Program-made: the position numbers and the translations under genes
UHGV virus genome: UHGV-0000037
Source: a virus
DNA length: 35,580 bases
Reading direction: 5' to 3' (one strand)
The notes under the pieces: model-generated
What the model saw: the letters and a program-made list of their open reading frames with translations, nothing else
The model's database searches: none
Told to the model about the DNA's origin: nothing
Shown: positions 26,433 through 26,940 of the stretch, piece by piece
Layout: every line of letters begins with the position of its first letter
Position numbering within the stretch: position 1 is the stretch's first letter

Positions 26433-26890
26433 CTTCTCTTGGTATTTTTGTTCATTATTCCACCTGTTCCTATGGTTACGTTACCTTTGATAACATTCCC
26501 CAGAACATCTCCATGAATAACCTGTTCCGCCCGTTCTCTGGAGGAGCCAGTAGTCAAGGCCGACAAAACTGAACCTTTGACCTGTAATGGTGCCTGCCGG
26601 TAGTGCTGCAGTAACTCCATTTCATCACGTGATAAAGTTATACCTGATGACTCCCCGGTAAGAATGAACTGTACATTGGCCCCAATTCTTGCAAAGGCTG
26701 CAAGTAACTCACCTCCGGGAACAGCAACCCCTCGTTCATATTTCCCCCACATTTCTCTTGAAACGCCACAAAGGGCTGCTACTTCAGCCTGCTTGAGTGA
26801 TAACCGCGAACGCTCAGCTTTGAACCGCGACGCGCAAAGAGAATCAAAATTCACATAAACCTCATTGACAATGAGAACAATAGTTCTCAC
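26429..26890 (-). CDS. Prophage repressor, XRE-family HTH
   Basis: HTH ...LSLKQAEVAALCGVSREMWGKYERG...; divergent from the ner-like gene; probable true start is the GTG at 26854 (GAGG 5 nt upstream) rather than the track GTG at 26890. Confidence 0.75.
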   Translation of the reverse strand: MRTIVLIVNEVYVNFDSLCASRFKAERSRLSLKQAEVAALCGVSREMWGKYERGVAVPGGELLAAFARIGANVQFILTGESSGITLSRDEMELLQHYRQAPLQVKGSVLSALTTGSSRERAEQVIHGDVLGNVIKGNVTIGTGGIMNKNTKRR

Positions 26891-26907
26891 AATCTATCAC
26901 ATATAAA
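26865..26907. promoter_or_regulatory. Divergent early promoter/operator region: TTGACA (26865-26870) plus perfect 7-4-7 inverted repeat TGAGAAC-AATA-GTTCTCA (26872-26889)
   Basis: Read directly; the palindrome occupies the spacer of a sigma70-like promoter facing the ner-like gene, and AGGAG precedes the ner ATG. Confidence 0.4.
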
Positions 26908-26940
26908 ACAAACATCATTGCATCAACAAAGGAGACAACA

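Follow-up and report, generated by a model that had tools for sequence, protein, structure and literature searches.

A candidate operator region for an XRE-type immunity repressor in a BcepMu/B3-like transposable prophage of Escherichia coli

Phage immunity regions and the layout of the locus

The operators of the P22 C2 repressor are 18 bp long, with a 7-4-7 layout. The locus that we describe here resembles the switches governed by P22 C2 and by the CI repressors of lambda and 434 in several respects: The repressor has an N-terminal helix-turn-helix of the XRE/Cro-C1 type, a dyad operator is placed over the lytic promoter, with a second candidate operator of lower quality nearby, and heteroimmune relatives differ in recognition helix and operator together. 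The weaker site, O2, is placed where it would limit repressor synthesis, as OR3 does. There are also clear differences. Compared with the OR regions of lambda, 434 and P22, we find two sites instead of three, they are 33–34 bp apart instead of about 24 bp, and the main site, O1, lies entirely in the spacer between the -35 and -10 hexamers. Unlike lambda, the repressor has no S24 autocleavage domain, the first early protein (gp16) does not appear to share the repressor operators, and the phage is transposable, not lambdoid. A repressor site which fills the spacer and blocks the polymerase is found in the P22 Pant promoter, where it is the operator of Arc. Nevertheless, Arc is a ribbon-helix-helix tetramer, unrelated to the helix-turn-helix repressor considered here.

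Phage Mu offers another comparison. As in our locus, its repressor gene is divergent from an early operon with the transposase A and B genes, and the site of its small early DNA-binding protein seems to be distinct from that of the repressor, unlike the case of lambda Cro. On the other hand, the repressor found here is not a homologue of Mu c, the early protein belongs to the TIGR04111 family, with no Pfam Ner match, and the operators are short dyads, while Mu O1–O3 are long regions. In Mu the operator is also the transposition enhancer, an identity which rests on the homology of the repressor to the N-terminus of the transposase.

The immunity region of the Pseudomonas phages B3 and Fc02 (repc, pC2/pE, ner-like) has the same layout as ours and a homologous first early gene (about 71% DNA identity), but the specificity of the repressor differs. 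At the equivalent place, B3 has the sequence TTGACA-GGTGCAATATTTGGCACC-ACTATT. RNA-seq of Fc02, a member of the B3 family, has shown that inactivation of a temperature-sensitive repressor switches on pE, the promoter which precedes the ner-like gene (PMC9936078). The proximal promoter of the repressor, pC2, likewise becomes active only upon induction, and lysogens transcribe the gene from a distal promoter (PMC9936078). This pattern, by analogy, fits a proximal region which is sensitive to the repressor. The Fc02 study defined promoters, and no operator (PMC9936078). In the literature within our reach, no operators are described for this phage group.

The window, the whole stretch of 35,580 nucleotides that we have analyzed (UHGV virus genome UHGV-0000037), is a BcepMu/B3-like transposable prophage of E. 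coli. The genes for structure and lysis occupy the minus strand and extend to about 24 kb. The early operon runs on the plus strand from 26941, and codes for a 62 amino acid DNA-binding protein, an IclR-like helix-turn-helix protein, a DUF3102 protein, a 589 amino acid rve transposase and an ExeA-family ATPase. The early region thus has the BcepMu/B3-like layout: A gp16-family gene comes first, an rve-family transposase gene is part of the operon, 1.5 kb downstream of the O1 region, and an XRE repressor gene is divergent. The closest isolated phages are PhiKM, classified as a Bcepmuvirus, and Klebsiella phage KP12; Pseudomonas phage B3 is more distant.

The segment 26400–27500 is found at high coverage in at least 127 complete E. 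coli genomes, IAI39 and CE10 among them. At least three immunity types are found at this locus in E. coli, each with a palindrome of its own: that of the window, TGCTCATAATTATGAGCA (in ST131 strains and PhiKM) and GGTGAGGTAATCTGCACC. About 446 further genomes carry other immunity types; in the records listed, their homology to the window begins at 26888–26891, at the -10 hexamer of the early promoter, which the extent of the immunity determinant given below explains.

The palindrome, the early promoter and the repressor gene

The candidate operator O1 (26872–26889, no strand) is the sequence TGAGAACAATAGTTCTCA, with the arms TGAGAAC and GTTCTCA around AATA. The palindrome is present as claimed in a preliminary description of this DNA, which had called it a perfect 18-bp dyad. 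In fact, its symmetry is 16 of 18: The 7-bp arms are perfect, but only the inner AT of the center is symmetric. It is a 7-4-7 dyad, with half-site centers 11 bp apart, and its conserved core is GAGAAC-N4-GTTCTC (26873–26888). In related loci the dyad reaches 20 bp, ATGAGAAC..GTTCTCAT, equivalent to 26871–26890.

Inverted repeats of this kind are not rare. The whole window contains 27 perfect repeats with 7-bp arms and loops of 0–8 nt, compared with 21 ± 5 in shuffled sequences; four of the 27 have a 4-nt loop, and about 0.05 repeats are expected per 86 nt. No enrichment of the palindrome or of its degenerate forms (up to three mismatches) has been detected throughout the window. The palindrome by itself is therefore not above chance, and its significance had to come from comparison with other loci. 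An overlapping 15-nt palindrome, CTCATTGACAATGAG (26861–26875), has been rejected, it is not conserved in relatives.

O1 lies in the early promoter Pe (26865–26893, plus strand), which has a consensus -35 hexamer, TTGACA (26865–26870), a 17-nt spacer and the -10 hexamer CACAAT (26888–26893), with matches in 10 of 12 positions. This is the only sigma-70-like promoter match in 26600–27300. It faces the gene at 26941–27129, with a predicted transcription start near 26899–26901, and O1 fills its spacer entirely. The earlier claim that the palindrome follows a consensus TTGACA which faces a ner-like gene is thus borne out. The layout of Pe is common to 73 related loci containing gp16, and relatives have CATAAT as the -10 hexamer. 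The difference is due to position 26890, which is C in the window and T in IAI39 and in 38 of 40 related operators. The C changes CATAAT to CACAAT, removes the eighth base pair of the dyad, and turns the ATG annotated in RefSeq into GTG. The stretch 26845–26945 is nevertheless found unchanged in at least one E. coli genome (CP025851, strain 510016).

The leader of Pe (26894–26940, plus strand) contains the element TATCACATAT...ACAAACATCATTGCATCA, recognized in an alignment of 51 leaders, and a Shine-Dalgarno sequence, AGGAG (26930–26934). The element is kept across immunity types in enterobacterial and Pseudomonas gp16 loci, and is not found in distant gp16 loci. A further copy of TATCACATAT is present at 27152–27161, between the gp16 and IclR-like genes, beside a 20-nt imperfect inverted repeat (27132–27175). 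Both copies could be binding sites for gp16 or promoters, the leader copy being a candidate for the repressor promoter.

The immunity repressor gene is found at 26429–26854, on the minus strand. Its product has an XRE-type helix-turn-helix at the N-terminus, with the recognition helix SREMWGKYE. Residues 10–56 match the Pfam families HTH_31 (30.7 bits, cut-off 27) and HTH_3 (23.2 bits, cut-off 23), and the nearest solved structure is the N-terminal domain of P22 C2 (1adr, 2r1j; E 9e-5). A Peptidase_S24 domain, which would indicate LexA-like autocleavage, gives no match in the 141 amino acid protein.

The position of the start codon determines whether O1 overlaps this gene. The longest ORF begins at GTG 26890, inside both the -10 hexamer and the palindrome, and the RefSeq model WP_001259268.1, of 153 amino acids, begins at the equivalent ATG in IAI39. 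Nevertheless, homologues align only from residue 11–13 of the longest ORF. The first possible start is found at the equivalent of 26854 in some relatives (ATG in L053, GTG in L052 and L054), and 25 of 32 distinct relatives have GTG or ATG exactly at this position. A Shine-Dalgarno sequence, GAGG (26863–26860), is located 5 nt upstream of GTG 26854, and there is nothing like it before 26890. For these reasons, the repressor most likely starts at GTG 26854 and has 141 amino acids, so that O1 is most likely wholly intergenic. The overlap with the repressor ORF mentioned in the preliminary description holds for the longest ORF, but probably not for the gene. The RefSeq start is probably 36 nt too far upstream, within the early promoter, a probable misannotation which is corrected here.

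We have detected no sigma-70-like match which could be the repressor promoter on the minus strand in 26600–28600. Candidates picked by hand, TGATAGATT at 26899–26891 and TATTGT in the center of O1, are weak, and only close relatives retain them. At the other end of the gene, the repressor stop codon overlaps the start of the next ORF (25446–26432, minus strand, 328 amino acids, phrog_10002), which has a weak Flk-like match at its N-terminus (46.6 bits, cut-off 353). Residues 108–128 of the repressor tail (RAEQVIHGDVLGNVIKGNVTI) resemble residues 3–22 of this ORF (blastp E 3e-4), which may be the remnant of a duplication or of a split gene.

Comparison with related loci

We have gathered 80 related loci by means of the first early protein, from genome contigs, and 52 by means of the repressor, from viral contigs. 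Among the 73 gp16-containing loci with a recognizable promoter, 48 have a palindrome with at least six of seven arm pairs in the spacer, compared with 2.7% in control places, and these 48 include 38 distinct palindrome sequences. The palindrome of the window is uncommon: GAGAAY-N4-GTTCTC is found in only 7 of the 82 loci obtained through gp16. These are exactly the seven loci whose repressors are closest to that of the window, with 47.5–99% identity over the blastp alignments; the next best have 37–40%.

The relationship becomes clearer when loci are chosen by their recognition helix. The helix [ST]RE[MI]WG[KR]YE is common to 40 non-redundant loci from the two collections, found in Enterobacteria, Pseudomonas and uncultured viral contigs. 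All 40 have the arrangement TTGACA-wt-GAGAAC-N4-GTTCTC-ATAAT, allowing up to two mismatches in the 12 operator positions, some 150 nt before the codons of the helix. As these loci are related by descent, they are not independent of each other, and a count such as 40 of 40 exaggerates the number of independent events. Simple inheritance of the operator is nevertheless argued against by the diverged flanks and by the different downstream genes. In the sequence logo, the arms have 1.2–2.0 bits per position, the center is A/T-rich and variable, and beyond the -10 hexamer there are only 0.1–0.5 bits. Part of the conservation of the arms is due to the promoter, because the right arm ends in two bases which also begin the -10 hexamer. 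A weight matrix derived from 35 relatives which are not E. coli gives O1 26.4 bits, against a maximum of 15.5 over 20 shuffles.

When the helix changes, the palindrome changes with it. For example, the repressors of loci L096–98 are 74–75% identical overall, but have the helix KRETWSRYE, and the palindrome ATGTGAT-N6-ATCACAT takes the place of O1. The loss of the palindrome in relatives with the same repressor had been named in advance as the observation that would speak against an operator; the half-site GAGAAC/GTTCTC is kept in all 40 loci, and other helices go with other palindromes. The main reading of the preliminary description, that the palindrome is the predicted operator of the XRE-type repressor, is strongly supported by this comparison. 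A separate observation concerns locus L103 (IMGVR_UViG_3300012078_000235), which has a symmetric double change, GCGAAC-TATG-GTTCGC, with an unchanged recognition helix (ISREMWGKYERG). This natural variant could show to what extent position 2 of the half-site contributes to recognition.

The palindrome is not a single dyad, as had been stated. A second, degenerate copy is found at 26839–26854 (no strand), GAGAAT-CAAA-ATTCAC (GAGAATCAAAATTCAC), which we consider a weaker candidate operator, O2. It covers the repressor start codon, the last three bases (CAC) being the reverse complement of GTG, and its center is 34 bp from that of O1. A repeat search paired 26835–26859 with the O1 region. In the weight matrix O2 has 11.9 and 10.4 bits in two registers, among the top matches of the 35.6-kb window; these scores of 10–12 bits are within the range of shuffle maxima, and it is the conserved position which argues for the site. 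A site with at most three mismatches in 11 positions is found 32–35 bp from O1 in 35 of 40 relatives, while the background rate of these loci predicts 0.22. Over O2, codon 5 of the repressor (Ser5) is TCT in 24 of 32 loci, and the first base of codon 6 is C in 30 of 32, even though the residue may be L, Q, R or H, which points to a constraint on the DNA, not on the protein. Loci of other immunity types show a similar arrangement: In 20 of 32, the O1 of the locus itself is repeated 29–35 bp to its left, with agreement in at least 9 of 14 arm positions, against 2.7% in cross-locus controls (Mann-Whitney p=4e-13). The base needed for the start codon is precisely where O2 departs from O1 (GTTCAC instead of GTTCTC), and O2 may be the weaker site for this reason.

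Other sites of this type have been observed. Two viral contigs, L114 and L116, lack the left-hand O2 and have a site, GAACTTAAATTCTC, 34 bp to the right (downstream) of O1, which suggests that the 33–34-bp spacing may matter more than the side. Nine relatives (L025, L041, L052, L105, L113, L117, L120, L122 and L123) have a GAGAAC-N4-CTTCTC-like site 175 bp to the left of O1, inside the repressor gene, over the EVLFS codons. This site is absent from the window and could be a third operator or a coding coincidence. In the window, the second-best match of the matrix is found at 27026–27047 (ATGAGGTCTATCGTGTTCTCAA, 14.2 bits), inside the gp16 gene over the NEVYRVLN codons. We have not accepted it as a third site. 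Among type-A loci it is found only in the near-identical E. coli copies, and its GTTCTC is also present in the heteroimmune phage PhiKM. Since the remaining loci which have this operator do not keep it, it is probably due to chance or to coding.

The palindrome might be the site of the first early protein instead of the repressor, or be shared by both, as in the case of lambda Cro and CI. This protein is coded by the gene at 26941–27129 (plus strand). It has 62 amino acids and belongs to the BcepMu gp16 family of DNA-binding proteins (TIGR04111, BcepMu_gp16, 94.4 bits, cut-off 34), also with a match to phrog_925. The c/ner designation given to the region does not hold as homology to Mu Ner: In a Pfam search the protein has no match to the Ner family, and its sole match is HTH_31 (24.2 bits, below the cut-off of 27). 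This weak helix-turn-helix signature, together with the location of the palindrome just upstream of the gene and in its own promoter, the usual place for autoregulation, favors a gp16 site. The comparison of loci points the other way. In a Mantel test with 48 distinct spacers, the similarity of operators is correlated with that of repressors (r=0.50, p<=0.0005), while the value for gp16 is r=0.10; the partial correlations are 0.49 for the repressor and -0.05 for gp16, given the repressor. In loci L001, L003 and L004, gp16 is 89–91% identical to that of the window, but just 2–4 of the 17 spacer bases match. On the other hand, it is only 67–73% identical in L053, L023 and L041, all of which retain the GAGAAC dyad. 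In addition, 16 of 38 loci with a GAGAAC operator have another first early gene, with no gp16 homologue downstream. This count considers only the presence or absence of gp16; a comparison of leader motifs, whose pattern was too narrow and missed the motif of the window itself, has been left out. Since the operator follows the repressor and not gp16, the palindrome is taken to be the operator of the repressor. The proposal that a Ner-like protein binds it is very improbable, and the gp16 identities and the 16 loci, although indirect, also argue against a protein in the position of Cro which shares the repressor operators.

An inverted repeat could also reflect a hairpin in the repressor mRNA, formed in its 5' leader and acting on stability, translation or attenuation. 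Immediately before the Shine-Dalgarno sequence, the minus strand folds with -13.4 kcal/mol (z = -2.6), a distal promoter reads the repressor through this region in Fc02 lysogens, and the symmetric double change in L103 would preserve pairing too. However, it is the sequence of the arms, near 2 bits, which is conserved, and not their pairing: Changes in one arm which break the pairing are tolerated (GATAAC/GTTCTC, GAGAAC/GTTATC), and the sequence of the arms changes along with the recognition helix. There is no U tract and no relevant Rfam match, O2 repeats the half-site sequence yet pairs poorly, and the repeat lies outside the Pe transcript. We consider a hairpin unlikely, only slightly less so than a gp16 site. 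The least probable explanation, which we give hardly any weight, is a chance palindrome, a by-product of promoter or coding sequences, or the site of a host factor. The frequency of 7-bp-arm repeats in the window, similar to that of shuffles, and the lack of enrichment of the pattern with up to three mismatches would agree with chance. But conservation is specific to this position in Enterobacteria, Pseudomonas and uncultured viral contigs, the matrix score is above the shuffle maximum, the promoter imposes no sequence requirement of its own on the spacer, and covariation with a protein coded by the phage argues against a host factor. Finally, the operator region could double as an enhancer bound by the transposase, as in Mu. 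The phage is transposable, with an rve-family transposase coded nearby, and the O1–O2 operators of Mu are its enhancer. Nevertheless, a blastp comparison of the repressor with the 589 amino acid transposase gives a best E of 1.1, and the module on the transposase side is common to immunity types with different palindromes. As the repressor is unrelated to the transposase, an operator/enhancer identity of the Mu type is unsupported, and a double role is about as improbable as a gp16 site.

A model for the switch and its meaning

We consider it very likely, from the sequence comparisons described above, that the palindrome, O1, serves as the main operator of the XRE-type repressor coded by the prophage itself, blocking Pe and accompanied by the weaker O2. 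We have observed the sequence, its position, its conservation and its covariation with the recognition helix; physical binding, dimer stoichiometry, cooperativity between O1 and O2, autoregulation and the position of the repressor promoter are inferred. A repressor dimer would insert one recognition helix (SREMWGKYE) into each GAGAAC half-site. As the centers of the half-sites are 11 bp apart, both would be on the same face of the DNA, and the four A/T-rich central base pairs would not be read base by base. Since O1 fills the whole Pe spacer, the bound repressor would cover both hexamers of the promoter, exclude RNA polymerase and silence the early operon, that is, the gp16-family protein, the IclR-like regulator, the DUF3102 protein and transposase A and B. 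In this way lysogeny would be maintained and immunity conferred.

A second dimer would probably bind to O2, cooperatively or at higher concentration, where it would lie on the 5' end of the repressor gene, beside its ribosome-binding site and the -35 hexamer, reinforcing the occlusion of the -35 hexamer. Occupancy of O2 would also throttle transcription of the repressor, which must come from the right, a case of negative autoregulation; this step is a conjecture, since the search of the minus strand in 26600–28600 gave no repressor promoter. The gp16 protein would act at a site other than O1.

Taken together, the comparisons indicate that the feature is real and functionally important, a switch element of an ordinary kind. 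O2, the start codon, the exclusion of gp16 and the family-wide scaffold are additions to what had been described. For E. coli, the immunity determinant (the repressor with O1/O2, about 26429–26890) can be assigned for the prophage of at least 127 complete genomes. General ideas about phage switches are not changed by this finding.

A wider proposal, which we put forward tentatively and with much less confidence than the identity of O1, is that O1 and O2 form a conserved module of two operators, with O1 in the TTGACA-17-CATAAT spacer and O2 29–35 bp away, on the repressor start codon. It would be used by one family of small XRE repressors with dozens of specificity classes; no fewer than 38 different palindromes have been counted among relatives, which are found in Enterobacteria, Pseudomonas and beta-proteobacteria. 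If this is true, the logic of the switch, with operators for the repressor only and a separate site for gp16, would be neither that of lambda nor that of Mu. The family would also provide a clean data set for the recognition code which relates helices to half-sites. If both sites are bound, these phages would supply, on a common promoter chassis, a library of orthogonal repressor/operator pairs made by nature, and a scaffold with so many pairs of helices and palindromes may help in the engineering of orthogonal repressors and in studies of helix-turn-helix specificity.
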